NCBI GenBank assembly: GCA_963716205.1
Contig: OY970290.1
Location: 239,417 to 303,416, forward strand
Source: an uncultured bacterium
Lineage (GTDB): Bacteria > Patescibacteriota > Minisyncoccia > Phycocordibacterales > GWA1-40-21
Reading direction: 5' to 3'
Length of the DNA stretch: 64,000 nucleotides
In this document: piece by piece, positions 1,230 to 24,236 of the stretch
Layout of the letters: each line of letters begins with the position of its first letter
Position numbering within the stretch: position 1 is the first letter of the stretch
Notes under the pieces: generated by a model
The model's database searches: none
What the model saw: only the letters and a program-made list of their open reading frames with translations
What the model was told of the DNA's origin: nothing
Program-made: the position numbers and the translations under genes

Positions 1230-1302
1230 GGGCCCGTAGTTCATCTGGTAGAACGCCTCATTTGCAATGAGGAGGTAAGCGGTTCGAGTCCGCTCGGGTC
1301 CA
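1230..1302 (+). tRNA. tRNA-Ala (anticodon TGC)
   Basis: 73-nt cloverleaf: acceptor gggcccg/cgggtcc, anticodon loop tttgcaa, T-loop ttcgagt. It has the G3:U70 alanine identity pair. The 3' end is ...ggtccacc. Confidence 0.85.
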
Positions 1303-2563
1303 CCTTAGCAGACTTAAGAGGCAGAAATGCCTCTTTTGTCTTGTAAAGACTGGCTATTTCGGGAGTTCCAAATAAATTATTTTCAAACGTCAACCCTAGA
1401 GGGAATTGGAACCATTGTAATTTAACTTTTGGTCCTATTTTCGCTTTTCGCCATATTTTACTTGGGTTTTTTAGGTATTCTTCGGCAATAGCCAGTGCTT
1501 TCTCAAAATTCATTTCTGTGTTCGGAATGATCGCCAGTGATGCATTTGCCTCACCTAAATCTCTATCAATCATTGCCAATTGTTGCTTTAAAACCGTATC
1601 TGGAATGATACCGTCCAGATTTTTCTTGATAATTCCTGACTGTTTTTCCGTAAGCTCGACAATATATTTTTTTAATCGACTTGCGTCTTTTTGTTGACCC
1701 TCTGTTGCTTTGACCAAGTTATTCTCAATGCATTTTTTTAGCTTTTCAAACTTATTATCATCGAACCGATATTTTTCTAAAAATTTCATAAAATTTTTTT
1801 CAAACTCGTCACGATTGTGATTGGAATCACTCCCACCAAAGCGATAGAAGGGATATTTTTTCAAACGGCCACCTCTGGACCAACTTCCAGTAAGTTTTTT
1901 GCCATTCTCATTTACAACAAATCTGCGGAGAGGGAAGTCTGGGTGATCAGTAATATGTGGTGAATTTTTTCTACCTTTATTTTTAAGTACTGACTGAACC
2001 TGATTAAAGAGCTCTTCAGAAATAATTGGCTCAAACACACCCTTGTGTCTTTCTCCAAATTTAATGATCCATCCAGCATAAAGTTCATTGGTAAGCATCG
2101 TATAGAAATACGATTTGCAAATAGGATTTTGTTTTTTGTTCAAGAGGCCATTTTTTGTTGTCACCATCCTTCTGACAACTTCCGTTGGATAGACACCAGA
2201 AGCAATAAGTTCAAAAGTTCGCTTTACAATTGGACACATCATTTCGTTTGGAGCTATCGTTGCCTTACCGGCCATTTTTACATTATCATATCCGATTGGT
2301 GCCATCCATACATAACGACCATCTCGCATGGCTTCTTTCATGCCACCTGCACAACGTTCAGATCTAATATCGTTATCGAATTGGGCGATATTCGCCATTG
2401 TATTCTCCATAAAGCGACCTACGGGTGTATTCTCAAAATGTTCCGAGGTTGATTTGATCTCAACCCCATAACGTTTCAAAAGAAGGCGAAGTTGACTGTA
2501 GTCGTCCGTGTTTCTGGAAAGACGGTCCAATTTATAAATAATCACTGCCGGAATACAATTCAA
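1241..2563 (-). pseudogene. large serine recombinase, 5'-truncated (catalytic resolvase domain missing); 3' end reads through the tRNA-Ala gene
   Basis: The product aligns with the intact recombinase at 7516..9066 starting from its ..IVYKIDRFSRN region, so about 75 N-terminal residues including the catalytic Ser are absent. The upstream frame holds only repeat-A sequence and a TAA. The C-terminal 21 codons are the reverse complement of the tRNA-Ala(TGC) gene. Confidence 0.7.
1318..1348 (+). terminator. hairpin gaggca-gaaa-tgcctc followed by ttttgtctt (repeat module M2, copy at the native tRNA-Ala)
   Basis: Perfect 6-bp stem with a GAAA loop and a T-run immediately 3' of tRNA-Ala. The same 30-mer recurs at 22626 and 24023. 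Confidence 0.6.
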
Positions 2564-2588
2564 ATCGAGGCGAATGTTCAGGCAGCCA

Positions 2589-2820
2589 GTTCCAATTCGT
2601 CCTCTTGTTTCTCGAAATGATTTCTGAAGTTTTTAATATACAAAAAAATATGGTTCCAATCCTGGAGGATGAGGTCCACAAACACTATTTTAATACCAGT
2701 ATTAAAATAAAGGCTTTAATCATAGATTTTTCAGAATAGAAAAAATTGAAATAGGAAACGACCCAAGCCGACTCGAACCACCAACGATGAAAGTTAGCCG
2801 TATTTTATGTTTTCACTCCT
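2589..2820 (+). repeat. composite repeat copy A (left arm gttccaattcgtcctc..., M1 core ggttccaatcctggaggatgaggtccac at 2652-2679, inverted T-arm-like M3 cgactcgaacc at 2769-2779)
   Basis: Direct sequence similarity to copy B (3664-3754) in the left arm and M1, and to copies C and D in M3. It abuts the truncated recombinase. Confidence 0.75.
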
Positions 2821-2929
2821 ACCATTCAGATCTTCATCAATTTGCGAAAAAAATTAAAAATGTTACCGTTATTAACGGACATAGTTCGTTAATAAAGAAC
2901 ACCGTCCAAATAATTAAAGGAGGTCAACC

Positions 2930-3529
2930 ATGAGCAATCTCATGCTCGATGTTGATCAAGCAGGTGAGTTGAAGGCTGCATTTCGGCGTGAAGGACCGTG
3001 GACGAATGGAGAGATCAAAATGCTCACGGAGCAAAAAGGTTTACTCAGAAAGTTTCGCGAAGTATTACTTGGCCACGCCAAGATTAATTTTCTCGACACG
3101 CTGATTGATTGTGATGCAGATCCTTATCGGCTTTTCGAAAAATGGAAAGTACGAACTCACAAAAAGGGCGGAAGTTGGTCTTTCAATCCCGAGGAGGTAG
3201 AACTTTTTCCAGTAATTAATTTTGGAAATGTTCGTATCAGGGATCTTGCCGATGAATTTGTCAAACTACCGATCCTGAATGCGAATGTTCTTGATCACCT
3301 CATCAAGAGGCCTTATCTGATGCCAGATGAGTGGGAAGGAAAAAGAATCCTGTTTGCCGGAACGATTTATGAGTCTGAGAGATCTTCCAGTCAAGGTTTG
3401 GAGCCAATCATTCGCTTTTTGGAGGTTAAAGGGACTCCGCATTATTTTGGTGGTGATACATTTCGTTCTTTTTACGGCACTCCACTTGAAGTGTATTCAG
3501 AAAATTGTGTTTTGCCGATTAGAAAGTAG
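2930..3529 (+). CDS. hypothetical protein (cassette-like ORF flanked by repeats A and B)
   Basis: 199-aa ORF with a strong SD (aaaggaggtcaaccATG) and a downstream terminator. Confidence 0.6.
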   Translation: MSNLMLDVDQAGELKAAFRREGPWTNGEIKMLTEQKGLLRKFREVLLGHAKINFLDTLIDCDADPYRLFEKWKVRTHKKGGSWSFNPEEVELFPVINFGNVRIRDLADEFVKLPILNANVLDHLIKRPYLMPDEWEGKRILFAGTIYESERSSSQGLEPIIRFLEVKGTPHYFGGDTFRSFYGTPLEVYSENCVLPIRK

Positions 3530-3542
3530 TTTTAGTTTTTAA

Positions 3543-3568
3543 AGGCGCGCTTACCCCGCGCCTTTTTT
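3543..3568 (+). terminator. rho-independent terminator
   Basis: Stem ggcgcg/cgcgcc with a 7-nt loop, followed by tttttt. Confidence 0.65.
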
Positions 3569-3663
3569 ATCCACACAACTTGTCGTTCTCGATAATTTTC
3601 TACCCCTTGGCAAAATATTTTTCAGGAGTAGGATTTATACTGAGACGAATATTTAGGCAACGA

Positions 3664-3754
3664 GTTCCAATTCGTCCTCATGTTTCTCAAAATGATTTCT
3701 AAAGTTTTTGATATACAAAAAAATCTGATTCCAATTCTGTAGGATGAGGTCCAC
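3664..3754 (+). repeat. composite repeat copy B (left arm plus M1 core gattccaattctgtaggatgaggtccac)
   Basis: About 85% identical to copy A over 91 bp. Confidence 0.75.
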
Positions 3755-3781
3755 TCTGGTAGATATTTTGACACAAAAAAA

Positions 3782-3811
3782 CACTCGCGATCATATCGCG
3801 AGTGTTTTTTT
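3782..3811 (+). terminator. hairpin cactcgcgat-cat-atcgcgagtg followed by a T-run
   Basis: 10-bp perfect stem followed by ttttttt. It could also serve the minus-strand small ORF. Confidence 0.6.
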
Positions 3812-5001: not shown

Positions 5002-6660
5002 ATGAAAATATTCGATAAGCTTACAATAGCGGCATTTTTTTTGTTTGTTTTTAGTTTTTTTGTGCCGGCACTTACGTTTGCGGCAGGTCCTGCAATAGTC
5101 AATCTCGGATCCGCCAGTAATTATGTTATTCTTTCAAAAACAGCAATCACGACGACCGGAGTAACTTCAATTATTGGGAACATCGGCATTAGTCCTGCTT
5201 CTGCAAGCGCCTTGACCGGTTTTGGACAAACACTTGATAGTTCCGGTCAGTTTTCAACATCAGCACTTGTCAGTGGAAAAATATACGCATCAGATTATGC
5301 AGTTCCAACTCCGGCGACGATGAGTACGGCGATCAGCGATATGCAATCGGCATATGTCGATGCTGCAGGCAGAACTCCTGGTGTCGGCGCAAATTTGAAT
5401 GTTGGCGGCGGAACATTGAATGGACAAACATTTGTTCCCGGAACATACACATGGGGAAGCAATGTCGATATCACGGGAAATATTACACTTTCTGGTACTG
5501 CAAGCGATGTTTGGATTTTTCAAATCTCAGGAACATTGAGTCTTGAAGCAGGAAAAAATATTATCCTTGCCGGCGGTGCATTGCCACAAAATATTTTCTG
5601 GCAAGTTGCAGGAACGACAACGGTGTACCCGGGAGCTATTTTTAGCGGAGTTATTCTCGCAGGTCCCGGCGCGTCAACAATTGCATTTCAAAACGGCGCA
5701 GTTTTGAATGGACAAGCGCTTGGACAAACAGATGTCACTTTGATTGGAACTACCGTTTCATCAGTTCTCTTGATACCGCCAGTGGCGGCAGCAGCAAGTC
5801 AGAATGGGGGTGATTACACTGCCATAATACCAATAATTGGTATTACAAAAATTCCCACACCGCTTGCTTTATCCGGACCCGGTTCAGTTACATATAACTA
5901 TACAATTTGGAATGCTGGAAATAAGGTAGTTTTTGAACCCACATTGCCGTTAACAAATATTACTCTTACTGATGACAAATGTAGTCCAGTAACATATGTT
6001 TCCGGTGATACAAACAATAATAAAGAGCTTGACCCTGGCGAAACATGGAATTACACTTGTACAACAACACTTTCAACGACGACGACGAATACCGCCACGG
6101 TAACGGGTTACAGTGAGGATACCTATCATCCTGCAGTAGCTGCAATTGCGACTGCAATCAGCACCGTTGTCGTTGGCATACCGGCGGCAGCTCCCGTTGC
6201 CAGCGTAGCAGCACCGCTTATCAACGTTATCGAAGTACCAAATCGTTTGACCCCGTTTCCATTTGGAGGAGGAAGTGTTACTTACACGTATACCGTGACG
6301 AATCCTGGCGTAGTTGCAATACACGATGTGGCTCTTACTGACAATAAATGTGCTCCAGTTTCTCGAGTTTCTGGAGATACCAATAGCAATAATCTTCTTG
6401 ATCCGAATGAAACATGGATCTATACGTGTACAACGAACGTTCCCGTTTCAACGGCGTCTGTTGCCACAGTGAAAGGTGATGCGAACGGTTTTCCGGCTCT
6501 CGGCTACGCATATGCGAATGTTCTTGTAGCTACTCCAGGTCTTCCAAACACGGGATTTCCTGCAAATAGCAACATTTCATGGACAGTCATTATATTGGCA
6601 GCTCTTCTCGTCATCGTTTCAGTTTCACTTATTGTGACACTCAAGAAAAGAAAGATTTAG
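5002..6660 (+). CDS. LPXTG-anchored surface protein with a DUF3494 (ice-binding-like beta-helix) domain and two DUF11-like repeats
   Basis: Signal peptide, QNIFWQVAG-type motif, and duplicated LTD[DN]KC..VSGDTN..LDP.ETW.YTCTT modules. The C-terminus is LPNTG followed by a hydrophobic TM segment and KKRKI. Confidence 0.8.
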   Translation: MKIFDKLTIAAFFLFVFSFFVPALTFAAGPAIVNLGSASNYVILSKTAITTTGVTSIIGNIGISPASASALTGFGQTLDSSGQFSTSALVSGKIYASDYAVPTPATMSTAISDMQSAYVDAAGRTPGVGANLNVGGGTLNGQTFVPGTYTWGSNVDITGNITLSGTASDVWIFQISGTLSLEAGKNIILAGGALPQNIFWQVAGTTTVYPGAIFSGVILAGPGASTIAFQNGAVLNGQALGQTDVTLIGTTVSSVLLIPPVAAAASQNGGDYTAIIPIIGITKIPTPLALSGPGSVTYNYTIWNAGNKVVFEPTLPLTNITLTDDKCSPVTYVSGDTNNNKELDPGETWNYTCTTTLSTTTTNTATVTGYSEDTYHPAVAAIATAISTVVVGIPAAAPVASVAAPLINVIEVPNRLTPFPFGGGSVTYTYTVTNPGVVAIHDVALTDNKCAPVSRVSGDTNSNNLLDPNETWIYTCTTNVPVSTASVATVKGDANGFPALGYAYANVLVATPGLPNTGFPANSNISWTVIILAALLVIVSVSLIVTLKKRKI

Positions 6661-6686
6661 TTTTGTTTGCGCATTCTGAAAAATTT

Positions 6687-7286
6687 ATGCGCTCAAAAAT
6701 ATCATTTGCATGGTCGGTGGTGATCATCAGTATCACAGGGGTTATATGTTCCTGGATTATTATTTCTTTTCCAGCACCAAGCAGCAATGATCAGATTGTC
6801 GCACCGATTGCAAATATTATCGTTCCCAAACAAGTCATTGCAGAACTTCCAGCTCGCCTGATTATTCCTGCCATCCATATTAATGCTTTTATTGAATATG
6901 TTGGGCTTACATCGAGCGGCGCAATGGCTGTGCCGCAAGGTCCGAATGATGTCGCATGGTTTGATCTCGGTCCGCGTCCCGGATCAAGCGGAAGCGCGGT
7001 GATCGCGGGGCATGAAGGATGGAAAGACAACATACCGGCAGTATTTGACAGTCTGCATCAACTCAAAGCTGGAGACTTAATCTATATTGAAGATCAAAAG
7101 GGCGCGACCAGCACGTTTGTGGTGCAGAAAACTGAAATTTATGACCAGAACGGAAATTCTTCCACTGTGTTTAATTCAACTGACGGGCTCGCGCATTTGA
7201 ATCTCATTACCTGCGAAGGTGTGTGGAATGCGACGGAACAAAGCTATTCCAATCGAATTGTTGTATTTACTGATAAAGAAAATTAA
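6687..7286 (+). CDS. sortase (transpeptidase)
   Basis: N-terminal TM helix, conserved His (VIAGHEGW), and catalytic LITC motif. It lies directly downstream of its LPXTG substrate. Confidence 0.85.
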   Translation: MRSKISFAWSVVIISITGVICSWIIISFPAPSSNDQIVAPIANIIVPKQVIAELPARLIIPAIHINAFIEYVGLTSSGAMAVPQGPNDVAWFDLGPRPGSSGSAVIAGHEGWKDNIPAVFDSLHQLKAGDLIYIEDQKGATSTFVVQKTEIYDQNGNSSTVFNSTDGLAHLNLITCEGVWNATEQSYSNRIVVFTDKEN

Positions 7287-7504: not shown

Positions 7505-7580
7505 GGGCCGCTAGCTCACTTGGTAGAGCGCTTCCATGGCATGGAAGAGGTAACCGGTTCGATCCCGGTGCGGTCCACCA
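7505..7580 (+). tRNA. tRNA-Ala (anticodon GGC), CCA encoded
   Basis: Acceptor gggccgc/gcggtcc with G3:U70, anticodon loop atggcat, T-loop ttcgatc, and a 3' ACCA. Confidence 0.85.
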
Positions 7581-9066
7581 AAGCCGACGGATTGATCAAA
7601 TATTCCCGATAAACCTCATAAACTGGGCTTAGTTTTGCGGTTCCAAATTTCTCCCCAGAAAATATTATATTTCCATTAAATATCAAGTTTTGGAACCGTA
7701 GTCGCTTTTCAGGTCTTTCATTCAGTCTAAGCCAGGTTTCCGCTGTATTTCTAATGTAGTTAAAGCAGTACTCTAAAGCCTCATCCATATTTAAGCTCTC
7801 GATTTGCTTGTCGAATATTAAAGCTTCTTTCTGAACGATTTTCCGATTAGCAGAATCCTTTTGAGCCAGGAATTCTTCTTTCGTGTAGGTGCCAGATTCA
7901 AAGAGTTCATAAATGTTTTGTCTTCTAATCTCTAGTTCTCCGATTTCTTTTCGTATTTTCCCTTTTAGTTCATCGAATTGCTTGTAATTGTTTTTCCAGA
8001 TATCAACCACGATTGTTTTAAAAGCCTTTTCAAACTGAAACGTTGGATTGATCTCATGTAGATATTCGATGAATAATTGCTCAAACGATTCTTTAGGAAT
8101 GGATTTAGCATAATCGCACTTCTGTTTATGATGGTGATAGTAAGGATATCTGATACCTTTTCGCCCCGTAGAATAGCTGCCGGTAAATGATTGTTCACAG
8201 AATTTGCAGACCGCCAGCTTTCGAAGCGGGAAAGCCGGATTTTTTGCTAAATGTGGCGTGCTTTTGTGTTGTCTTCTTCCCGTTCCCTGGCAGGTGTTGA
8301 AAAGCTTCTCATCAATAATTGGTTCAAACTTTCCCTTTATATCAATGTCCCACACCCGGATAATTCCGCAATAAATTGGATTCTTGATAATCATCTCCAT
8401 GAGTTGTCGTGTAGGAGCGTAGCCATTTCGGGTAGAAAATCCTCGATCCTTCAAGTATTTGGCAAGTGACTTTAAAGTGTGATGGCCCTTAGCAAATTCC
8501 TCAAAAATAAGACGAATATACGGGACATATTTTGGGTCAGGGGTTAGGTTGGCACCCTGGGCCAGGCGATAGTAGCCGAGGGGGGCCGGCCATACCCAAA
8601 TGCCTTTCTTTAAACGCTCCCGCATTCCATTTACACATCTTTCAGTTCGGACGTTGTTATCAAATTCAGCGAATCCCGATAACATAACCTCCATCAGCTT
8701 TCCTGATGGCGTATCGTCTATTTTTTCGGAGACTGAACGAATTTCCGTTCCGTATCCCTGAAGTTTTTGTTTGGTAATCGCGTAATCAGTCTGATTGCGG
8801 GAAAACCGGTCAATCTTGTACACAATAAAGTATTTTATCGTGTTTTTCTTGTTCGAGCAAAAGGCTACTGCCTTTGTGAACTCGGTGCGATCCACAGTTT
8901 TGGCAGACTCTCCACGCTCAATAAATACCTCCGATACGGTTACTCCCTCCCGTACCGCATACTCTTTACACATCCGTTGCTGTGATTCAAGACTCGTACC
9001 ATCTACCTGTTCGAGTGAAGACACCCGACAATAGATTATTCCGTTTTTTGTTTCTCCATTTTGCAC
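7516..9066 (-). CDS. large serine recombinase (integrase), intact; 3' end embedded in tRNA-Ala(GGC)
   Basis: 516 aa with N-terminal IIYCRVSSLEQ (catalytic Ser), a recombinase domain, and a Cys-containing region. The last 21 codons are the antisense of the tRNA-Ala gene. Confidence 0.85.
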   Translation of the reverse strand: MQNGETKNGIIYCRVSSLEQVDGTSLESQQRMCKEYAVREGVTVSEVFIERGESAKTVDRTEFTKAVAFCSNKKNTIKYFIVYKIDRFSRNQTDYAITKQKLQGYGTEIRSVSEKIDDTPSGKLMEVMLSGFAEFDNNVRTERCVNGMRERLKKGIWVWPAPLGYYRLAQGANLTPDPKYVPYIRLIFEEFAKGHHTLKSLAKYLKDRGFSTRNGYAPTRQLMEMIIKNPIYCGIIRVWDIDIKGKFEPIIDEKLFNTCQGTGRRQHKSTPHLAKNPAFPLRKLAVCKFCEQSFTGSYSTGRKGIRYPYYHHHKQKCDYAKSIPKESFEQLFIEYLHEINPTFQFEKAFKTIVVDIWKNNYKQFDELKGKIRKEIGELEIRRQNIYELFESGTYTKEEFLAQKDSANRKIVQKEALIFDKQIESLNMDEALEYCFNYIRNTAETWLRLNERPEKRLRFQNLIFNGNIIFSGEKFGTAKLSPVYEVYREYLINPSALVDRTGIEPVTSSMPWKRSTK

Positions 9067-9263
9067 GGCGGTAATTTTTTCATATCACCATCTACTTGTC
9101 GAGGTACCAAAGGCGACATTTTGGAACCATTTTTCTCTTCTATAAAACAATCAAGCGCCAACTGAGCGTGGGTATAAATGAGATTCCTAATAACCTCCAC
9201 ATCCTCGTCGGGAGCATTTTTTAAAGTCGGCTCAATTTCTCTCATTTGTTCAATGCTAATCAT
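9036..9263 (-). CDS. hypothetical small protein overlapping the integrase start (possible directionality factor)
   Basis: 75-aa acidic ORF overlapping the integrase start by 31 nt. No motif is recognised. Confidence 0.3.
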   Translation of the reverse strand: MISIEQMREIEPTLKNAPDEDVEVIRNLIYTHAQLALDCFIEEKNGSKMSPLVPRQVDGDMKKLPPCKMEKQKTE

Positions 9264-9413
9264 GTTTTCATTTTGATCTTCCTGGAATATAGCGAAAGAC
9301 GGGGAATCTTTCCGTAATCAGCAGGTTGCCGATTTCGGCAACTTTCACCGTCTTCGCGGAATGATTGTCTTCTTTCACAATAGGTGGAGGTCGATTTTTA
9401 TTAAAATCAAAAC

Positions 9414-9731
9414 ATGTTTTATATGAGCACGTTTACAAAACCTTTAAAAAAGGGAAACCGGATTCGGATATGCCGGACGCTCGCGCGCTACACACAAGAG
9501 GAATTGTCATACCTCCTGGGCATTCCGACCACCACGCTTTCAAAATGGGAGAACAGGTCGCAGACTCCCTCGATCCATTATGCCATCGGTCTTTCGGTGG
9601 CACTCCACCGCTTGGTGGACGAAATCTTTTCGGATTATCGGAATGAGTGGGTGAAGATAATTAATCAAAGGGCGCAGATTCTTGAAAATAAAAAGTCGAA
9701 AAAAATTACGAACGATAACGATAAACGATAA
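9414..9731 (+). CDS. XRE-family helix-turn-helix transcriptional regulator
   Basis: The segment RTLARYTQEELSYLLGIPTTTLSKWENRSQTPS is a classic HTH_XRE. It is divergent from the integrase. Confidence 0.7.
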   Translation: MFYMSTFTKPLKKGNRIRICRTLARYTQEELSYLLGIPTTTLSKWENRSQTPSIHYAIGLSVALHRLVDEIFSDYRNEWVKIINQRAQILENKKSKKITNDNDKR

Positions 9732-9888
9732 CGAAAACGTTATGAAAAAAATAAACGTTATTGGCGGCGAATGGCGAACAGCATGGCACTGGGGATTTGC
9801 TATTTGAAAAGTAAGAAACCATGTAAAATATCGCTTTGATCCAGAGCATTCTTTCTATTTTACAAGCACTCAAAGGGAGGATATTTCA

Positions 9889-10107
9889 ATGGCAGTCACT
9901 CTCAAAAAAGAAGTCGTGGTTGATGAATGGTGGATGCTTGTCGAAGGAGCGGCAGACAAGGTTGAACAGGTTTTCAAGGATACCGAGGACAATATAAAAA
10001 AATCTAAGGCTCCCGACGTAACCTTTGAGCGGGTATCTATTCAGTCTCTATTGAACCCCCATGGGAACTCGTGGACGTGGGAGAAGATGAATTTCGGAAT
10101 TACATAG
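9889..10107 (+). CDS. hypothetical protein (possibly the N-terminal part of a frameshifted gene continuing at 10071)
   Basis: 72-aa ORF overlapping the next ORF by 37 nt in another frame. Confidence 0.35.
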   Translation: MAVTLKKEVVVDEWWMLVEGAADKVEQVFKDTEDNIKKSKAPDVTFERVSIQSLLNPHGNSWTWEKMNFGIT

Positions 10108-10880
10108 ACAAAATTCCTTTTGGCGGAAATTACCTTATTGAACGGAAAATCCTGGCTTCGCTTGGAGAGGAAAGACGAAAACAAATCACCAGTGAGATTG
10201 AGCAAAAACGAGAACAAAAGAAATTCACCAAGCCGCCGGAAGTCGAACATATTCCCAAACCTGCTGAAGAACCAAAGCAAGAACCGAAATATGAACCTGT
10301 CCGAGAAAAGACGGGAAAGAAAGAACGGGTATCAGACCTGCCTGTCGAGACTAGTCCGGCACAGACGGAAGAAAAAGGCACGTCACGCCATCAATATCTT
10401 CAAAGTCTCATTAAACGTATGGCCGAGGAAAAGGGATACAAAGCGACCGTCGAGGAATCAATTCCCGATGGTCGGGTTGATGTCGGTCTTCTAAAGAATG
10501 GGAAGAAAATTGCCTGTGAGATTTCCGTGACCAATGCCCCCGATAATGAATTAGGAAATATCGAAAAGTGTCTCAAGGCAGGATACGACAAAGTGCTCAT
10601 GTGTGCCCAGGACAAGAAACATTTGGAAAAGATACGGACCTTGGTTATGGAAAAGCTAACCGACTCCGCTCTTGAAAAAGTAATGTTTGTTGAACCCGAA
10701 GAACTTTTCTTTTATCTGGAAGAAGAAGCGGCCAAGGATTCAGGAAAGGAACAACGGGTTAAAGGCTATAAGGTAAAGGTGAATTACCAACCCTTAAACC
10801 AGGACGACAAGAAAAGGAAACGCGAGGCCGTGGCCCAGGTCATCCTCGGAGCTTTCAAAAGGTTGAAGGGGAAGGATTAG
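10071..10880 (+). CDS. hypothetical protein; C-terminal region weakly PD-(D/E)xK-like (GRVDVGLL...ACEIS)
   Basis: 269-aa ORF with a K/E/P-rich linker then a conserved-looking C-terminal domain. No firm assignment. Confidence 0.45.
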   Translation: MDVGEDEFRNYIDKIPFGGNYLIERKILASLGEERRKQITSEIEQKREQKKFTKPPEVEHIPKPAEEPKQEPKYEPVREKTGKKERVSDLPVETSPAQTEEKGTSRHQYLQSLIKRMAEEKGYKATVEESIPDGRVDVGLLKNGKKIACEISVTNAPDNELGNIEKCLKAGYDKVLMCAQDKKHLEKIRTLVMEKLTDSALEKVMFVEPEELFFYLEEEAAKDSGKEQRVKGYKVKVNYQPLNQDDKKRKREAVAQVILGAFKRLKGKD

Positions 10881-10965
10881 GATTTGGCCGTTTAAGACCT
10901 CGGCAGACTTTTTTAAAATAAAGTTGTGTTAAAATGAATTGCATAAAGATTAAAAGAAGAATCCA

Positions 10966-11568
10966 ATGAAAGATATAAAGTCAGAATCCATTTTAGTAAT
11001 GAAAATCGGCTACCATGGAGCCGAAGATATTGACACTATTATTGCGAGAAAAAAAGAAGAAGAAAAAAAATGCGGTCAAACCTATTGGGGTTATGGCGGG
11101 GTATTATGCCACCCAATCCGAGTTGTCCAAAATTTTGCATCGCAAGTCGGAACGAAAAAAATCAAAGTTCTTTTCAGTGTTACCAAATCCCCATTCCAAT
11201 CTGATCCGACGCGAGCAAAATATTTTTCCGAGGACGGAAAAACATGGTCACCATTACATGACAGCGCCAATGTTCTGGCATCAAAATTTGCAATAGTTCT
11301 TCGTTCTCTCAAAGCATGTAAAAAGACAATAGTTCTTAACGATTATTGTGTCCCAATAGGTCCTTCAAAGGGGCGTCCCCTTAACGAATATCTAAGATTT
11401 CGTGTTGATAAAGCGGTCGGAACATTATCGAACAAAAAGAACCTGGGTCCCCTTAAGAGTCTTCCGATCCAGTTTGAGGCTGATTTGGTCCCGCCTTACG
11501 CCATCTTGGTGAGTCACCAGCATCAACCTGAGTCCCATCATCCATCACAAATTTCCCTTCCTTATTGA
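10966..11568 (+). CDS. hypothetical protein
   Basis: 200-aa ORF whose 3' end overlaps the convergent recombinase fusion by 116 nt. Confidence 0.4.
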   Translation: MKDIKSESILVMKIGYHGAEDIDTIIARKKEEEKKCGQTYWGYGGVLCHPIRVVQNFASQVGTKKIKVLFSVTKSPFQSDPTRAKYFSEDGKTWSPLHDSANVLASKFAIVLRSLKACKKTIVLNDYCVPIGPSKGRPLNEYLRFRVDKAVGTLSNKKNLGPLKSLPIQFEADLVPPYAILVSHQHQPESHHPSQISLPY

Positions 11569-13984
11569 TATAAGCTGGAATTTTCCTGTCTTTGCTCCCA
11601 TAGAATTTAGGCATTGCATCATCTTTTATTTTTTGGCCCTCAAAAGGAGCCGGACAATTATAGACACGATCTAAAACAAGATTTGCCGACCGTAAACTAG
11701 GTCGGTCTTCGAGATGATATTGATGAATTTCACGAATCATTTCAGAAACTACATACCCGTGCTTGCATAAAAATTCTTGAATGTTCGCCATTGCTTCTCT
11801 ACTCCAATCTTCCTTATGAGCAAAAGGCAAAATAGCCATTCCCCAACTTGGAGCTGGTTTGCAAAATTCCATGCAACGTCCTAGAAATAGTTTCCCGCAT
11901 TCGCCCTTGTCAACTGATCCATAAGGAGGGTTCGTGTAGAACACTTCATGAGCGCCTTTATATTTTTCAGGGATTGGATCTCGAACATTGTAGCGATGAA
12001 CCGAAATAAGATCGGGAGGAAGGCGCAAGTCGTCGATTACTTGTTCAATAAATGCTAAAAGCCTTTCATCAAAATCGAAAATACGAATTTTGGCCGGTCC
12101 TTTGAAAACATCTCGATTAGCAAGATGCGCAATAACCAAACCCATACAATCGCCATCACCAACAAATGCAACGTCTCTGTATTTCAGATAATCAATTGCT
12201 AAAAGTGCCTGAGTTGCTTGGCTTCCGGGAAGCATAAAGACTTGATCTATTGAACGGATTGGACGTGGTCTATCTGGATGTTGCGTGACCTGTGCAACTA
12301 AATCCACAATAGCCGCATCAGGCCTCACCCCCAGGCTGAGAGCCACGTCTTTTTGCCACAGCCTCAGGTCAAGGCGGCGCTTTCGGATATGGTCCCCAAG
12401 GGTTGTTAGGCTCTTAGGGTAGGCAGGATTTTGTGGTTTTTTGGCCGATAATTGAAAGTTAATGAATGGCAACGCAGGAATGAGGTTGTGTTGCTTTTCA
12501 TTAGTCAATTCAGCGGTCGAGGGAATATAGGCGAGGGATATGGAAATATCATCCGAGCCTATAGTGATCCTATCGGTGATATTCTCGATGATCCGCCGTT
12601 TTTCTTCGAAAACCAGTTCTTTCCATTTGGAATAAAGGTCTTTGGCCTCGGATATGATCTCGTCACTTGAGAGGTATTTGATCTTGAGGAAGTCTATCTC
12701 TCCCTGAAGGTCCGGGAGCTGGGCCTTGACCTTCTCCAAGCGCTCTTCATTTTCCCGGAATTCGGTTCCAAAGGTCTTCACGCTGATCTCGTCGTTGTAA
12801 TAGGCTTTTTTTATCTTGTCCATTTGGCTTTCGATTTTGGCACGCTCTTTCTCAAGCCGCTCTAAGAGTTCCTGCTTTTCCTGAATGACCATATCGGCCC
12901 GTTCAAGGTGCTTGGAAATCTCAACCGGGGAAAAGAAGAAGTTTTTTAATTGTTCATGGAATATGGATTCAAGATCATCCGGGAGTATCTTGTTCCTGCA
13001 TTTGGCACAGGTATATTTCGACGCATTCGGCGGTATGGGCATCTTGCCCCCGCAGTGACAAAAGACGAAGCCGGTGAAAAGATGTGTTGGCCTTTTGGCG
13101 GGTTTCTTACGTTTCGATTCCTGTTCCCTTAAGATAGCGTTGCACTGATCCCACAATTCAGCAGAAACAATGGGCTCTACCTCGACATATTCCCATTCCG
13201 CTTTGGGCTTCATCACCCATGCTTTGCCGTCGCCCAGGCTCTTCGTGTAATTGAGCCGGTGCTTTCCTTTGGCCGTGGGGTCTTGGAGAAGACGGTCAAC
13301 AGTGGTATCGGAAAACTTTGAGCCTTTGCGCGTCCGATATCCCTTGTCATTGAGAATCCGGGCAACAGTTTTCTTGCGGTGATGTTCAAGGAAATATTCA
13401 AAGATGAGTTTTGCAATGGGAACCTCTTTGGGTTCAGGGATGAGTTGTTTGTCTTTCCAGCGATAACCGAAAGGAGCCTGACCGCCAAGGGGTTTGCCGA
13501 GCTTTGCCCGGATGGGGACAGAGGCGGCCACCCGCGAAGCGATTTCTTCCCGTTCCCATTGGGCCATGGCCGCGATCATGGTGTAGAAGAGACGACCAGC
13601 AGGGGTTGAAGTATCGATGGATTCTTGGAGGGAAATTAAATCGGCGTCACTCTCATTGAAGAGGTCGGCGAAATCTAAAAGCTCTCTAGTGTTTCGGGCA
13701 AGGCGAGCAAGTTTCGAGAAGATGAGTCCTGTGATATGGCCGGACTTAATATGCCCAAGCATCTTTTGAGCTTCCGGGTGGGCAATGACTGCTTTGCCGC
13801 TTACTGCCTCTAAGTGATAGACCTCTTTGACATTCCAACCCTTCGACTCTGCATAATACCGCGCCCGTTTCTCATGGTGTTCAGGGCTTTCCCCCCGCGC
13901 CTGATCTTCCGTTGAAACACGAATCCAAATACCGACGTTTTTCTTTCCTTGGTTTTTTTCCACGAGCGCACCTCCACAAATCAA
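11453..13984 (-). CDS. large serine recombinase fused to a C-terminal HTH plus DUF43/BpsA-like SAM-dependent transferase (methyltransferase-like) domain
   Basis: 843 aa with N-terminal IWIRVSTEDQ (catalytic Ser), a recombinase domain, a Cys cluster CHCGG..CAKC, and a coiled coil. After about residue 500 it continues with LGDHIRKRRLDLRLWQKDVALSLGV (HTH-like), VAFVGDGDCMGL (GDGD), and VFYTNPPYG (NPPY). Confidence 0.8.
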   Translation of the reverse strand: MICGGALVEKNQGKKNVGIWIRVSTEDQARGESPEHHEKRARYYAESKGWNVKEVYHLEAVSGKAVIAHPEAQKMLGHIKSGHITGLIFSKLARLARNTRELLDFADLFNESDADLISLQESIDTSTPAGRLFYTMIAAMAQWEREEIASRVAASVPIRAKLGKPLGGQAPFGYRWKDKQLIPEPKEVPIAKLIFEYFLEHHRKKTVARILNDKGYRTRKGSKFSDTTVDRLLQDPTAKGKHRLNYTKSLGDGKAWVMKPKAEWEYVEVEPIVSAELWDQCNAILREQESKRKKPAKRPTHLFTGFVFCHCGGKMPIPPNASKYTCAKCRNKILPDDLESIFHEQLKNFFFSPVEISKHLERADMVIQEKQELLERLEKERAKIESQMDKIKKAYYNDEISVKTFGTEFRENEERLEKVKAQLPDLQGEIDFLKIKYLSSDEIISEAKDLYSKWKELVFEEKRRIIENITDRITIGSDDISISLAYIPSTAELTNEKQHNLIPALPFINFQLSAKKPQNPAYPKSLTTLGDHIRKRRLDLRLWQKDVALSLGVRPDAAIVDLVAQVTQHPDRPRPIRSIDQVFMLPGSQATQALLAIDYLKYRDVAFVGDGDCMGLVIAHLANRDVFKGPAKIRIFDFDERLLAFIEQVIDDLRLPPDLISVHRYNVRDPIPEKYKGAHEVFYTNPPYGSVDKGECGKLFLGRCMEFCKPAPSWGMAILPFAHKEDWSREAMANIQEFLCKHGYVVSEMIREIHQYHLEDRPSLRSANLVLDRVYNCPAPFEGQKIKDDAMPKFYGSKDRKIPAYINKEGKFVMDDGTQVDAGDSPRWRKAGPNQPQTGSEDS

Positions 13985-14038
13985 TCAAACTTTTTGGTGA
14001 ATATGAATAGGATTAAATTGTATACGATTGTATACCTG

Positions 14039-14374
14039 CTAAGCCGTATCCTCAAGATCAAATATAGTATCGGCACTAAACGGTTTCGACGTATTTCCGT
14101 CGATCATCAGTTTGAGATATATGCCATACGCGGGAAGGTTCACGATATCACTTTGCCGGAAGACCGGCCAGAATTCATCAGAGAGCATCTTGGCATCTTC
14201 CGTTCCCACCCTAAACGAGATCATGGTTCCCACATTTCCCAAGATGGCCCTTCGAATATGTTCATCGACTTGATGAAGGTATTGGTTGACGAGGATCAGG
14301 TTCAAGCGGTATTTGCGCGCCTCTGAAAGAATATCTATAAACCCGGAAGTGGTGAAGCTTTGAAACTCGTCCAC
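14039..14374 (-). pseudogene. C-terminal fragment of a VirD4/TraG-type conjugative coupling protein
   Basis: Residues ...YVDEFQSF..EARKYRLNLILVNQYLHQV..AILGNVGTMISFRVGTEDAKMLSDEF match the C-terminal region of T4SS coupling ATPases (ILVNQ). The frame stays open upstream of the annotated Met, but no N-terminal ATPase or TM part is present. Confidence 0.5.
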
Positions 14375-14447
14375 ATAAAGATAGAAGTCCCGTCGTTTTT
14401 CTTCCGGTATCTATCATCCGCTCAAGGGAACATCCGCCGGAAATATC

Positions 14448-14879
14448 GTGGATACGCTCACCCAGTTCATCACCGGGAAAGGCTACAGCGTCCGCGTCGG
14501 CATGACCCCTTCTGAAGATATCTACGGCTATGTCAATGACAAGAAGGAGATCGTGCTCAAGGAGGGCGAGAGTTCCGACCATCAAGCTTTGGTTCTAGCT
14601 CATGAAATGTCGCACGCCCTTCTCGGTCATGTCGGTTCTTTCCAGAATCAAGCGGAGAAGGAACTTGAAGCCGAAACGTCTGCCTGGATCATTTGCCGCA
14701 ATCTCGGATTGCGGACTAATGAAACAAGTTTTGCTTACTTGGCAACATGGGCAAGCGGGCCGGAACAAGAAAAGAAGTTGGAAAAGGCCGCTTCTCGTGC
14801 CTGTCAGGTGGCGCAACTAATTTTGGAAGGTCTGGAAGCAATGAAGCAGATTTCCAGCCAGAAAGGAGAAATGGTATGA
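14448..14879 (+). CDS. HExxH metallopeptidase-like protein (ImmA/IrrE- or ArdC-C-terminal-like)
   Basis: LVLAHEMSHALLGH motif. GTG start. Its stop overlaps the next start (ATGA). Confidence 0.5.
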   Translation: MDTLTQFITGKGYSVRVGMTPSEDIYGYVNDKKEIVLKEGESSDHQALVLAHEMSHALLGHVGSFQNQAEKELEAETSAWIICRNLGLRTNETSFAYLATWASGPEQEKKLEKAASRACQVAQLILEGLEAMKQISSQKGEMV

Positions 14880-15145
14880 AAAAACTCGTCATCATCATCG
14901 ACGATGGAATGGTTGAGGACGTGCTCATCAGTTCCAAGGAACCGATGGACATTATGATCGTGGACTTTGACAAGAAGACCCTCGATCAATCGGCCTTGCA
15001 TGAACTGAGCGAACCGCACAACTTTGAAGACGTGGCCGCATTAGCCGATATCTACAAGTGGGATGCCTTCTACGATCCCAAACGGGTCAAGGAGGTCTTT
15101 GCAACACAAGAGCCGAAACACGCCTTTAATCCCAGCACTTCATAG
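14876..15145 (+). CDS. hypothetical protein
   Basis: 89-aa ORF with an SD (aggag) 9 nt upstream and translational coupling to the upstream gene. A strong terminator follows. Confidence 0.5.
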   Translation: MKKLVIIIDDGMVEDVLISSKEPMDIMIVDFDKKTLDQSALHELSEPHNFEDVAALADIYKWDAFYDPKRVKEVFATQEPKHAFNPSTS

Positions 15146-15164
15146 GAATTCCAATTCCTAGCAA

Positions 15165-15198
15165 AGCCCTATCGACAATCGATAGGGCTTTTTTTTTA
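15165..15198 (+). terminator. rho-independent terminator
   Basis: Hairpin agccctatcga-caa-tcgatagggct followed by ttttttttt. Confidence 0.8.
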
Positions 15199-15294
15199 CT
15201 TATCTCTGATTTTTTATTTTATAGAAATTCTGTTATAGTTAATCCGTAGTTGTGTCCGAGTTGGTTTGAAATCCCAAGTCAAGAAACTCCAAAT

Positions 15295-16317
15295 ATGAAA
15301 AATTATTTTTATTACAAAGATAAAAAAAAAGTCCTACCTGTTTTAGGTGAGGAAAAAAATAAACTGGCAAAAAAGAAACTCGACCACATTCTTAAGACCA
15401 AAAAGGAATTAATACCAGAACACTTTATCGAAAGGTGGTCAGAGGTGGCATTGTATAATCCTGGCGGTGATGTTGAAAAAGCAAATGCCATTTTGATCAA
15501 TCCGGAAGACGGCGCTTACGATCTATCGAACCCACTCAACGACATGACAGGAAAAGAATGGGTAAAGTTCAGTTGCAGTTGGTTTATTTTTAATGCTCTG
15601 CACAAAGACTTAAAGGAAGAGAGAGAAGTATCTCCAAATACTCAGGATCATCCAGCGACATTTTCTCCGACAATGATTGAGGGGTTTGTGAAATTCTTTA
15701 CAAAAAAGGGAGAAAACGTACTCGATCCTTTTTGCGGCATTGGAAGCACTATGGTTGCCTGCAAACGAACCGGAAGAGTCGGCTATGGTATTGAGCTTAA
15801 TAAAAAATATTATGATCTGTCGCTCAAGCGAACTCCGGAATTCAAAAAGACCATATTCAACGAAAATGCGGCCAATATCAAAAAACTGAATCTGCCAAAG
15901 ATTGCTTTTTCGATTTCATCGCCTCCGTACTGGGACATGCTTAACCGAAGTACCAAAGACTTCAAAAAGGATAGAACGAAAGACGGTTTCGATGTTAACT
16001 ATTCCGAAGCCGAAGAGGACTTGGGTAATATTGATAACTACGATCTGTTTTTGGAAAAATTAGCAAATATATATTTTGACATATTTGATCTACTCAAAGC
16101 CGGAGGGTATCTCGTGGTCATTGTGAAGAACCTTAAGAAAGAGGGTAAAATGTATCCATTGGCGTGGGACTTGGCTCGGCTTCTCTCGAAGAAGTATATG
16201 CTCAAAGATGAGAAGCTTTGGATACAAGACAAAGTCGGTCTTGCCCCCTACGGATACCCTTCAGCGTGGGCAAGCAACATACTGCATCATTACTGTTTAG
16301 TTTTTCAAAAGAAATAA
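15295..16317 (+). CDS. DNA methyltransferase (N4-cytosine/N6-adenine family, SPPY motif IV)
   Basis: Motif X/I HPATFSP..VLDPFCGIGST is followed by motif IV SISSPPYW. It overlaps or abuts the next MTase. Confidence 0.8.
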   Translation: MKNYFYYKDKKKVLPVLGEEKNKLAKKKLDHILKTKKELIPEHFIERWSEVALYNPGGDVEKANAILINPEDGAYDLSNPLNDMTGKEWVKFSCSWFIFNALHKDLKEEREVSPNTQDHPATFSPTMIEGFVKFFTKKGENVLDPFCGIGSTMVACKRTGRVGYGIELNKKYYDLSLKRTPEFKKTIFNENAANIKKLNLPKIAFSISSPPYWDMLNRSTKDFKKDRTKDGFDVNYSEAEEDLGNIDNYDLFLEKLANIYFDIFDLLKAGGYLVVIVKNLKKEGKMYPLAWDLARLLSKKYMLKDEKLWIQDKVGLAPYGYPSAWASNILHHYCLVFQKK

Positions 16318-16318
16318 C

Positions 16319-17947
16319 ATGTCTTTAACCATTTCACAAATTGTAAAAAACCTTGTCGATGTAAACGATATCAAACACGATCGGCAGTATTCGCGCGTGG
16401 CGAAACTTCATAAATATTGGTCAAGAAAACCTTGGTTTGTTATCGATCAATACATTGAGAAATATTCCAAAAAGGATCACGTCGTTTTGGACCCGTTTTG
16501 TGGTAGCGGAATTATTGGACTGCAATCAGTTTTAGCCAATAGAAATTTCATCGGTTACGACCTGAATCCTTTCGCTGTCTTTCTCGCAAAGAACTCTTTG
16601 CAGGTCGGTTATGACAACGCCTCTTTTGAAGAGGACTTCTCAGCGATTGAGCGGGCTGTTCGGGAGGAAATAATGCCTCTCTATGCGACCAAAGACAAAT
16701 ATATTCTGTATACCATTCTTGGAAAGAAAAATAGTAAGGACTATAACGCTGTCATCGCTGACAGTAATTTCCACAACAAGCAAAAAGTTAGTCTCTCTCA
16801 AGAATATCTAAATCCAATCATAAAATTTCCTAAGAACTTGAAGTATCCAGACAAGGACTTTCCAGAGAAATTTTATAAAGATCGTTTTTCTTATAAGGGT
16901 GTGAAGCGAGTGTCAGACATGTTCACCAAGAGGAACCTTCTTGCTTTGGCAACACTTCATATGGCTATCAACAAATTGCCTCTAAAAAACAGAGATTTGT
17001 TCATGCTTGCATTTACGAACACCCTATTGCATGTAAGTAAATTAAAAGCAGAAAATGTGCGGCCTCTTGGTGTAAATAACTTTTGGATTCCGGATGATTT
17101 TATTGAAGAGAATGTCTGGTGGAGGTTTGTAGACCGAGTCAATAATGTAAAAATGGCAAAGGAAGTTATTGCAGACAAGGCTTCCCGAAACGAGGTCTCG
17201 AAGCCTGTCTCTAAGATTTATAACAAGTCGTCTTTGAAGATGATTGAAATTAAGCCGGGTAGTGTTGACTATTTGATTACCGATCCTCCATACGGCGACA
17301 CCATCCAATACTCAGAGCTTTCATACATCTGGAATTGCTGGCTTGAGAAAGAGTTTGAGATTGAGAATGAAGTCATTATAAACCCTGTGCAAAAAAAGGG
17401 AGTGAACGAATACTACGATCAGCTCGCTACTTTTATCCGCGAAGCGAAAAGGGTTCTCAAAAAAGACGCTTACTTTACACTTGCATTCCACAACAAGGAT
17501 TTGAAAATTTGGATTAGCCTTGCCGAATTAATAAGAGATCATGGAATGGAATTGGTAGACATCTCTTCCTACGACACCTTCGGCAGTCCTTACAATAAAA
17601 ATTGGGCAAAATTTTCGCCCAAATCTGACTTCTATGTGACCTTTATAAATTCGAAAAATAAAGCAAGGGTTAAAAATAAAAAAGTTATCTATCCCAATGA
17701 TATTGCAGATGAGATCGTCAAATGCCTTGGCAAAAACAATGGCAAACTTTTTAATCTGAATAAGGCGTATGATCTGTTCGTAAGCGTAGTTATAAGTAAA
17801 ATATTTGATGGGTCGCAAGTCATTGAACACGAACGACTAAGTATTGAGAACATTATGAATCTTTTTCAGAACGTTCCACGAGATGAGAAGCATGGTAAGA
17901 AAAAGGAAACTGTTCAGATAAGTTTATTTGAACTACAACATGTTTAA
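16319..17947 (+). CDS. DNA methyltransferase (N6-adenine type, DPPY motif IV)
   Basis: N-terminal HKYWSRKP..VLDPFCGSGIIG (motif X/I) and LITDPPYGD (motif IV). 542 aa. Confidence 0.8.
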   Translation: MSLTISQIVKNLVDVNDIKHDRQYSRVAKLHKYWSRKPWFVIDQYIEKYSKKDHVVLDPFCGSGIIGLQSVLANRNFIGYDLNPFAVFLAKNSLQVGYDNASFEEDFSAIERAVREEIMPLYATKDKYILYTILGKKNSKDYNAVIADSNFHNKQKVSLSQEYLNPIIKFPKNLKYPDKDFPEKFYKDRFSYKGVKRVSDMFTKRNLLALATLHMAINKLPLKNRDLFMLAFTNTLLHVSKLKAENVRPLGVNNFWIPDDFIEENVWWRFVDRVNNVKMAKEVIADKASRNEVSKPVSKIYNKSSLKMIEIKPGSVDYLITDPPYGDTIQYSELSYIWNCWLEKEFEIENEVIINPVQKKGVNEYYDQLATFIREAKRVLKKDAYFTLAFHNKDLKIWISLAELIRDHGMELVDISSYDTFGSPYNKNWAKFSPKSDFYVTFINSKNKARVKNKKVIYPNDIADEIVKCLGKNNGKLFNLNKAYDLFVSVVISKIFDGSQVIEHERLSIENIMNLFQNVPRDEKHGKKKETVQISLFELQHV

Positions 17948-19034: not shown

Positions 19035-19035
19035 T

Positions 19036-20049: not shown

Positions 20050-20072
20050 TTGTAAAGTTAGTACGAAATCCT

Positions 20073-22451: not shown

Positions 22452-22496
22452 TAATGGCCTTAGACTGTCACACTTTTGGAGCGGCGTTTACACATC

Positions 22497-22800
22497 AAGC
22501 AACCGATTTTTCTTTTTCAGGAAAGTCAGGTATGTTTAAAGAGACGTGAAATTCCCAGAATTCCCTAAGACTTTTGAAAATTAGGTTCCAATTCTGTAAG
22601 GTGTGGTCCACTCTGGTGAACATTGGAGGCAGAAATGCCTCTTTTGTCTTTTAAAGATTAGCTATCTTGATGGTTTAAAGAAAAAATTTTTCTAAAAAAC
22701 AGACGGCTCTAATTATGGATAGAAATTAATGACCCAAGGCGACTCGAACCGATAACGAAAGTTAGCTGTATTTTGTTTCTTTCGTTCATACCAGACCTCC
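22497..22800 (+). repeat. composite repeat copy C (left arm ccgatttttctttttcaggaaa..gtgaaattcc, M1 22584-22611, hairpin M2 22626-22656, inverted T-arm-like M3 about 22704-22790)
   Basis: About 80% identical to copy D over about 280 bp. M2 and the flank also match the sequence downstream of tRNA-Ala(TGC). Confidence 0.8.
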
Positions 22801-22855
22801 CATCATTGACAAATCCCTACTAAATGTAATCATTCCTTTATTAATAAAACTAATC

Positions 22856-23881: not shown

Positions 23882-23892
23882 AACATAATGAT

Positions 23893-24170: not shown

Positions 24171-24236
24171 TGTTACGCTATAGGAACAGATGTTATTTTT
24201 AGTTTTGGTATGAATCAGTATTAATTAAATAATAAA

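Follow-up and report, generated by a model that had tools for sequence, protein, structure and literature searches.

The 64,000-nucleotide stretch analysed here, referred to as the window (positions 239,417 to 303,416 of contig OY970290.1, from an uncultured bacterium of the Patescibacteriota), contains a large serine recombinase gene, int2, whose last codons lie inside a tRNA gene on the opposite strand, tRNA-Ala(GGC). The question raised by this locus is why a recombinase gene should end within a tRNA gene. The answer favoured here, which we consider highly probable, is that int2 is the integrase of a 15-kb island, E2, and that the attachment site of the element (attP) lies inside the integrase gene itself. 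Integration at the end of tRNA-Ala(GGC) would then split the gene and exchange its tail.

tRNA-Ala(GGC) was called at 7505-7580 on the plus strand by both ARAGORN and Rfam (56.2 bits), and it is interpreted as the host target gene, forming the B arm of attL. int2 occupies 7516-9066 on the minus strand, starts with GTG and encodes 516 amino acids (aa). The overlap of the two genes (7516-7580) measures 65 nt and comprises the stop codon, 20 full codons and 2 nt. Codons 1-496 are the element-encoded body. The final 20 codons from the core onward (VDRTGIEPVTSSMPWKRSTK) are antisense to tRNA-Ala(GGC), and the TGA stop is the reverse complement of tRNA positions 12-14. An original prediction made from the letters of the window had described a large serine integrase with its 3' end antisense to this tRNA, and the tRNA calls and the coordinates of the open reading frame (ORF) agree with that description. 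The motif IIYCRVSSLEQ, on which the prediction relied, was located at residues 10-20. A true stop before 7581, which it had named as a danger, was not found, as the ORF reads past 7581 with no earlier stop. It had also claimed the same architecture at 1230. The identical frame and stop are present there, at tRNA-Ala(TGC) (1230-1304) with the ORF at 1241-2563, but the recombinase encoded by this ORF, int1, is N-terminally truncated. int2 and int1 share only 30% identity. The public annotation of int2, database protein P0001 (502 aa), begins at an internal Met (MSSLEQ..) and so lacks the first residues of the catalytic motif. With the GTG at 9066 as start codon, int2 regains MQNGETKNGIIYCRVSS (window 9025-9066), as in its homologues.

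The profile search proposed as a check on int2 found three serine recombinase domains. The resolvase-type catalytic domain PF00239 covers residues 10-156 (E=6e-31) and includes the YCRVSS motif. PF07508 (Recombinase) was found at 179-261 and PF13408 (Zn_ribbon_recom) at 280-336. R14, S16, S17 and other residues are invariant across the int2 family, as are C287, C290 and C317. Every invariant family residue is kept in int2, and no catalytic loss-of-function substitutions were seen. The fold was tested on P0002, a homologue 74% identical to int2. The AlphaFold2 model of P0002 had a mean predicted local distance difference test score (pLDDT) of 86, with long helices at 342-389 and 395-418 representing the coiled-coil insertion in the zinc ribbon domain. 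The native tail of P0002 was predicted as a helix at 504-528 (pLDDT about 75). The best Foldseek matches of the model were the full-length SPbeta, Bxb1 and phiC31 integrases, solved by cryo-electron microscopy, and the C-terminal domain of LI integrase (E 3e-19 to 3e-11). By its domains and modelled fold int2 is assigned to the large serine integrases. The full-length fold and the order of resolvase, recombinase and zinc ribbon plus coiled-coil domains are those of phiC31, Bxb1, Listeria A118/LI and SPbeta SprA, whereas sequence similarity between the int2 clade and the solved enzymes is confined to the catalytic domain. The earlier description of int2 as intact and full length stood in part: nothing is missing from the catalytic and DNA-binding domains, but a tRNA-encoded peptide stands in place of the native C-terminal helix.

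To what extent this ending is peculiar to one gene can be seen from its homologues. A search with int2 gave 1392 matches at E<=1e-10, mostly from metagenomes, and the tails were classed among the best 120 of these. C-terminal peptides antisense to a tRNA, following a conserved ..S-x-L-V, were present in 93 of the 120. Examples such as GIEP, GFEP and RIEL result when the T-loop GGTTCGAnnCC of a tRNA is translated from its antisense strand. A longer native tail with the motif LV......WN.I...L..W..F was carried by about 18 (~15%). For a genome survey 80 loci were fetched from GTDB species-representative genomes, the close relatives being largely from Patescibacteria. Nearly all int ORFs of these close relatives terminate inside an opposite-strand tRNA, mostly tRNA-Glu. 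The other opposite-strand targets in the 80 loci were tRNA-Ala, Lys, Arg, Met, Asn, Ser and Pro. Relatives at 31-35% identity in Myxococcota and Acidobacteriota also end in tRNA-Glu, Asn and Pro. At least 576 of 599 pattern-matched stretches in species-representative genomes encode an int2 relative. Because of the 93 antisense-tailed homologues among 120, and because nearly all close relatives in the 80 loci end inside an opposite-strand tRNA, the overlap of int2 with its tRNA is judged to be far beyond chance. The tRNA-antisense ending is thus a family trait rather than a local oddity. The presence of two integrases at two tRNA-Ala isoacceptors, which the original prediction had called unusual, did not prove to be so: all three tRNA-Ala genes of the window end in GGTCCAC, and the whole clade targets tRNA 3' ends.

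An unoccupied version of the site was observed in L163, a metagenome contig from a relative, whose nucleotide identity to the window is 74-76%. The two sequences have in common the gene order ddl, tRNA-Ala(TGC), further on tRNA-Val(-), tRNA-Ala(GGC), tRNA-Ala(CGC), tRNA-Pro and a HlyD-like gene. The tRNA-Ala(GGC) of L163 is identical to the window copy at 74 of 74 positions, so the conservation of this tRNA in relatives, on which the original prediction depended, was found at the syntenic site. Homology between L163 and the window ends directly after GGTCCAC and restarts at window position 25427. The distance from tRNA-Ala(GGC) to tRNA-Ala(CGC) is 434 bp in L163 compared to 17.9 kb in the window. 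Because L163 has the identical syntenic tRNA without the element, the segment from 7579 to about 25420 (17.8 kb) is identified as an insertion and tRNA-Ala(GGC) as a host gene. The placing of int2 at the left end of an integrated element was correct. After GGTCCAC, L163 reads AAAG (5317-5320) and the window reads CAAAG, and the unoccupied site is without an encoded CCA. The CA at 7579-7580, which completes the encoded CCA of tRNA-Ala(GGC) in the window, is therefore element-derived.

A displaced native integrase tail was located at the far end of the element, 15 kb from int2. With native tails as queries, tblastn found five native-tail remnants in the window, each on the minus strand like int. 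T1 lies at 2578-2679, T2 at 3653-3754, T3 at 22495-22611, T4 at 23892-24008 and T5 at 25304-25387. T3 has 38 codons (VDHTLQNWNLIFKSLREFWEFHVSLNIPDFPEKEKSVA) and is placed as the P' arm of the attR of E2, with the core at 22605-22611. This placement came from tblastn, from junction alignment and from an intact ORF in frame with int2. When int2 and T3 were joined at the core the reading frame was kept and the product measured 534 aa. A tail remnant on the same strand as a tRNA-tailed int, 3.8-8.9 kb upstream of it, was found in 17 other loci. In 15 of these 17 an attL/attR core of 6-13 bp was mapped, and it is the reverse complement of the (CCA)-discriminator-acceptor end of the tRNA. The remaining two, L029 and L031, have no mapped core because the automatic core search chose an unrelated repeat. 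Beyond the core, attL runs into the tRNA and attR runs into the tail in the 15 mapped loci. Terminator hairpins were frequent in the host-side attR flanks, as expected downstream of a tRNA gene. Because the native tails are displaced to the far ends of the elements and joined to the body through the shared core, attP is assigned to the 3' end of int and integration is taken to partition the gene.

The position of the crossover could be narrowed further. All junctions in the window contain GTGGACC, which is GGTCCAC on the tRNA strand. The attL core GGTCCAC lies at 7572-7578 on the plus strand (tRNA positions 68-74), and being common to every junction it bears out the earlier proposal of an att core at ggtccac. 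Among the 15 attL/attR pairs aligned from other loci, the block identical in all is 4 bp long and corresponds to tRNA positions 71-74. We infer that the crossover dinucleotide lies within these positions. A crossover placed in this 4-bp block would therefore leave the tRNA unaltered, as at most 4 identical bases are exchanged. A dyad-symmetry scan of attP and attB peaked for both between tRNA positions 71 and 72; only two positions (GG....CC) gave signal, so the scan has little weight.

The arms of the sites have a fixed geometry. The tail-coding DNA resembles the acceptor and T-arm of the tRNA, and its GAAY sits inside TGG-AAY, the invariant Trp-Asn codons. GAAY was exactly 5 bp further from the core in the tail-side (P') arm than the GAAC of the tRNA T-loop in 19 of 19 pairs. 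For LI integrase the zinc ribbon domain (ZD) motif is located at bp 16-24 in attP and at bp 11-19 in attB (Rutherford et al. 2013, PMC3783163). The 5-bp GAAY offset matches this canonical attP/attB geometry of serine integrases. The int2 clade resembles the large serine integrases in this ZD-type motif lying 5 bp further out in attP and in its short att sites with few shared central bases (PMC3783163).

From these observations the following mechanism is proposed. The serine recombinase would insert E2 by a crossover within the final bases of tRNA-Ala(GGC). In this clade the conserved Leu-Val codons (TTG GTN), together with the one or two codons that follow, match the end of the target tRNA (acceptor end, discriminator and CCA) in reverse complement. 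After integration the int body, with all catalytic and DNA-binding domains, would remain at attL and read antisense through the tRNA to a chance stop. The native tail of ~27-40 codons would be moved to attR at the opposite end of the element. The DNA encoding the tail would also serve as the P' arm, its ZD-type motif lying 5 bp further out than in the tRNA. Excision between the cores at 7572-7578 and 22605-22611 would restore the 534-aa integrase. The circular element would express a long form with the native helix, leading to integration. The integrated copy would express a short form with an incidental tRNA-encoded peptide, which would be the only form on hand for any excision. The transcript of the short form would have to pass antisense through an expressed tRNA gene. 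The structure of the gene would in this way force two protein isoforms, one for integration and another for excision. The anatomy, its recurrence in the family, the empty site of L163 and the 5-bp offset are observations, and the continued mobility of E2 is an inference.

Several points weigh against this mechanism. The circular attP form and the excision of E2 are predictions from the assembled sequence. The crossover is placed only to a 4-bp block and the dyad signal comes from just two positions. The spacer of L163, 393 bp long with one 95-aa ORF, has no relation to the B' flank of the window, and the ancestral attB is therefore a deduction. The tail of P0002, the closest native-tail relative of int2, matches T1 and T2 of the other array and not T3. 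Since T3 comes from another tail lineage, E2 could have arisen by fusion of two adjacent elements, and int2 may originally have had a tail other than T3. The size of E2, 15 kb compared to 4-9 kb elsewhere, also fits a fusion. In many distant Acidobacteriota relatives the tail is still the native one, and their large contigs show no tRNA in the 10 kb around the gene. These genes may be internal members of arrays, or their att sites may be placed differently.

Decay at the locus could be taken as a sign that the overlap is an artefact or a fossil, produced either by a tRNA borne on the element or by an immobile remnant in which a dead gene happens to read through. Decay does seem common here, because int1 is N-terminally truncated and the cassettes of the window have lost their integrases, and the possible composite nature of E2 would fit as well. 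Against this, tRNA-Ala(GGC) is host-borne, being identical and syntenic in the element-free L163. This frame and this geometry are found again in dozens of independent species, at no fewer than 8 types of tRNA. int2 keeps all invariant family residues, and its partner ORF, XRE gene and in-frame intact tail are present. An artefact or fossil is on balance quite improbable, and a split integrase gene is the preferred reading.

A further question is whether the exchange of tails matters to the protein. Native tails have ~27-40 codons and form an amphipathic helix. Trp-Asn is invariant in 44 of 44 tails, and hydrophobic residues at W+3, +4, +7, +10 and +13 are retained from Patescibacteria to Acidobacteriota. 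An open frame is kept in all 22 displaced tails (5 in the window and 17 in other loci). Since the conservation reaches ~60 bp from the crossover, past the ~25-bp half-site, and since all 22 displaced copies are open, the native C-terminal helix is probably functional at the protein level. The exchange could instead be a neutral by-product of compact elements in which either tail works. Direction would then be set by the coiled coil and a separate recombination directionality factor (RDF), as in phiC31 and Bxb1, and the RDF would perhaps be a 75-aa ORF beside int2. The tRNA-encoded tails differ in length (about 5 to >30 aa) and sequence according to the tRNA and to where the stop falls, and so do not seem to be selected as such. 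About 35 loci have a conserved small partner gene immediately upstream of int, and canonical serine integrases need an RDF (PMC3783163). A neutral exchange does not explain as readily why the native helix is conserved well past the reach of the half-site, with W-N in 44 of 44 tails and the hydrophobic pattern to W+13, nor why 22 of 22 displaced tails are open. The 75-aa ORF also bears no resemblance to a known RDF in Pfam, PHROG or PDB profile searches. Neutrality is thus a serious possibility, falling a little short of probable. Alternatively, the exchange of the helix for a tRNA-encoded peptide could be a built-in direction switch. The long form would integrate, and the short form would either excise without a classical RDF or be locked. 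Convergent transcription of the tRNA would damp expression of the short form. Such an enzyme would be a self-toggling serine integrase, its state written into its own gene by the reaction that it catalyses. We regard a direction switch as rather unlikely. A discussion of the C-terminal tail was looked for in a phiC31 structural preprint and was not found.

How far does this arrangement depart from known systems? Unlike the known large serine integrases, the int2 clade targets tRNA 3' ends, has attP inside the int ORF and exchanges its C-terminal helix. Its host elements also differ in being small non-phage islands, mostly in Patescibacteria. The nearest parallel in gene anatomy is provided by the SSV1-type (fusellovirus) integrases of Sulfolobus, in which att lies inside int and integration into a tRNA gene interrupts int (PMC5861418). 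Those enzymes are tyrosine recombinases of archaeal viruses, whereas int2 is a bacterial serine recombinase. int2 also differs in losing only its last 27-40 codons, and the integrated copy stays open with all catalytic and DNA-binding domains. The Islander/TIGER islands of tyrosine integrases are similar in their insertion at the 3' part of a tRNA gene, the preservation of the tRNA, the tRNA-proximal int and the tandem arrays at one tRNA. The int2 elements differ from them in the serine enzyme, in a core of 6-13 bp without a long displaced tRNA repeat, and in a distal end made of a piece of the integrase gene. A displaced tRNA-Ala(GGC) fragment was considered as the far boundary and none was present in the window, where only the 7-bp core is repeated. 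Such a fragment is absent because the far boundary is a piece of int.

The use of tRNA genes by serine integrases has been touched on before. The TIGER survey (Mageeney et al. 2020) stated that use of t(m)RNA genes by a serine integrase "has not been reported previously" and flagged serine-integrase islands at t(m)RNA genes in 14 of 297 candidate cases, a small unproven minority for which no mechanism was described (PMC7192596). Those 14 islands are similar to the present elements in having a serine integrase at a tRNA site; here a whole clade is involved, with a defined att anatomy. Surveys of mycobacterial prophages assigned tRNA sites to tyrosine integrases. The tycheposons of Prochlorococcus are likewise cargo elements stacked at tRNA genes, some with little beyond one cargo gene, but 910 of 937 use tyrosine recombinases and a split integrase has not been described for them. 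No description of the int2 clade was found in the full-text literature, of which coverage was partial, and an earlier description elsewhere is possible. The clade is apparently an undescribed variant of serine integrases that splits its own gene at tRNA 3' ends clade-wide.

Serine integrases are regarded as avoiding tRNA genes, and here a large clade uses them systematically with an att anatomy that can be read from genomes. A piece of the integrase gene labels the distal end, and for this reason attL, attR, attP and attB can be predicted for hundreds of natural pairs of enzyme and site. Serine integrases are preferred tools for the insertion of large DNA, and tRNA 3' ends are conserved landing sites. 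The arrays also show how defence genes and single-gene cassettes are acquired by small-genome Patescibacteria and pile up at their tRNA genes.

E2 extends from about 7579 to 22611, begins with int2, ends with T3 and has its junctions at GGTCCAC cores. Upstream of int2 lies a 75-aa helical ORF (9036-9263, minus strand), recognised by its homologues beside int, which overlaps the int2 start by 31 nt. It is followed by a divergent control region (9264-9413) and by an XRE/HTH_3 regulator gene on the plus strand (9414-9731), assigned by Pfam and by PHROG repressor families. The layout in the original prediction, with a 75-aa ORF, a gap of 150 bp and an XRE gene, was confirmed; the gap at 9264-9413 separates the 75-aa ORF from the XRE gene. 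Its grouping of the XRE gene and small ORF with int2 as a module was supported by their conservation as partners, the 75-aa ORF in about 35 loci and the XRE gene in L081. A word-indexed database search with the 75-aa ORF gave only 2 matches, and tblastn on the fetched loci was used instead, which placed a homologue directly upstream of int in about 35 related loci. For this reason the 75-aa ORF is a real partner gene of int. It matched no Pfam or PHROG family, and a PDB profile search that included integrase complexes containing RDFs gave nothing below E=0.1. Its single-sequence model was a helical hairpin with a mean pLDDT of 65. The ORF is a candidate RDF or accessory protein, and since RDFs are not one family it could have such a role without similarity. 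The control region contains an inverted repeat with 28-nt arms (9296-9354) that are 79% complementary and may be an operator. Promoter-like matches in 9264-9413 were no more numerous than in shuffled controls.

The same prediction interpreted these genes as a prophage-like switch. On this reading a prophage would begin on its left side with the int2 locus, where integrase, excisionase and repressor would form a lambda-like switch. The divergent XRE/CI-like regulator, the small ORF and int do form a compact module, and this module is conserved in L081, where a closely similar XRE gene has the same position and the XRE/small ORF/int module is followed by an OLD-like ATPase. The rest of the element does not resemble a phage. 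No virion, packaging or lysis families, including capsid, terminase and tail families, were found in 7.6-25.4 kb with Pfam and PHROGs. In IMG/VR there were no close relatives of the integrase, the best matches reaching 25-33% identity and being partial for the most part. Related elements mostly measure 4-9 kb. In one relative, the native-tailed L082, int is placed among relaxase, coupling-protein and primase genes, and E2 itself has a TraG-D_C fragment. The cargo of E2 (9732-22494) consists of unknown ORFs, a second serine recombinase (11453-13984), the TraG-D_C fragment, an IrrE-like peptidase, two type II methyltransferases and an AAA_13/PDC-S06 ATPase. A prophage is extremely unlikely on this evidence, and with its methyltransferases and defence-type ATPase E2 is classed from its gene content as a non-phage integrative island carrying defence genes. 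The defence-like cargo lies at 15250-22451 and includes the two type II methyltransferases, two unknown ORFs that may encode nucleases, and an AAA_13 ATPase of 792 aa that corresponds to the PADLOC candidate system PDC-S06. The second recombinase (11453-13984, minus strand, 843 aa) is a large serine recombinase fused in frame to a BpsA_C-like domain (PF01861, the C-terminal domain of branched-chain polyamine synthase). It is 28% identical to int2 over the first 300 aa, and the local GC is 0.45-0.51 compared to about 0.40 nearby.

The remainder of the 17.8-kb insertion is made of smaller units. Cassette E3 (22612-24008, 1397 bp) has a left int1-type 3' remnant of ~75 nt, a 341-aa ORF on the plus strand and T4 at its right end. 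Cassette E4 (24009-25387, 1379 bp) has a remnant of the same type (~75 nt), a 348-aa PKD-like ORF on the plus strand and T5 at its right end. The ends of E3 and E4 are 81% identical over 128 and 65 bp, and the ORFs between them are unrelated. A 33-bp stub of an older element follows (25388-25420), in which the end of an int body (..SSSL) is fused to the start of a tail, with an extra GGTCCAC core at its right end. The host B' flank then occupies 25421-25466 (plus strand), with L163 homology from 25427 and tRNA-Ala(CGC) at 25467. At T3 and T4 an int 3' remnant is linked to the tail of the preceding element through the core. Successive integrations into one tRNA predict such junctions, with the tail of the newcomer abutting the older integrase body. 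E2, the two 1.4-kb cassettes and the 33-bp stub are thus interpreted from their junctions as a tandem array produced by repeated integrations at one tRNA. Native tails are retained by the distant relatives in L050-L073, which comprise Acidobacteriota and other loci. In L053 another, free copy of the tail lies 2.8 kb downstream (14296-14370), and in L051 a tRNA-Pro lies 5.4 kb downstream. L053 and L051 hint at tandem arrays in which the tail of a newcomer re-completes an old integrase body.

A second array is located at tRNA-Ala(TGC) (1230-1304, plus strand, core 1297-1303). It covers 1230-3811 and consists of truncated int1 (1241-2563, minus strand, from the ORF list and Pfam), T1, a 1.07-kb cassette and T2. 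The cassette (2680-3754) contains a 199-aa ORF and T2, and it is followed by the host B' flank and an intrinsic terminator at ~3782-3811. The three single-ORF cassettes (2680-3754, 22612-24008 and 24009-25387) are 1.1-1.4 kb in size. Their ends (int 3' remnant and tail) are conserved and their cargo genes are unrelated, and they resemble non-autonomous units that a resident integrase could mobilise in trans. A conserved block with an inverted motif resembling a tRNA 3' end (plus strand TGACCCAAGGCGACTCGAACC) occurs at ~2757-2824, 22728-22793 and 24125-24150, about 140 bp from the core. Its interpretation as a structured RNA was rejected, with fold z-scores of -0.4 to +1.3 and no Rfam match. 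The last codons of the int1 type (KTKEAFLPL, 1317-1337, and again at ~22625-22650 and ~24022-24047) contain a terminator-like hairpin, AGAGGCAgaaaTGCCTCT, and a T-run on the tRNA strand, and an integrated element would therefore provide a terminator directly 3' of the tRNA. In L163 a 14-codon integrase remnant (KNAISASKYSTVD, antisense) and a hairpin lie at 3116-3160, directly after tRNA-Ala(TGC). This remnant is read as the scar of a lost element, now forming the 3' flank of the tRNA. Between the two arrays of the window, at 5002-7286, are genes for a 552-aa surface protein with an LPxTG-like C-terminus and for a sortase. These have no counterpart in L163, and the interval from tRNA-Ala(TGC) to tRNA-Val is therefore variable between relatives.

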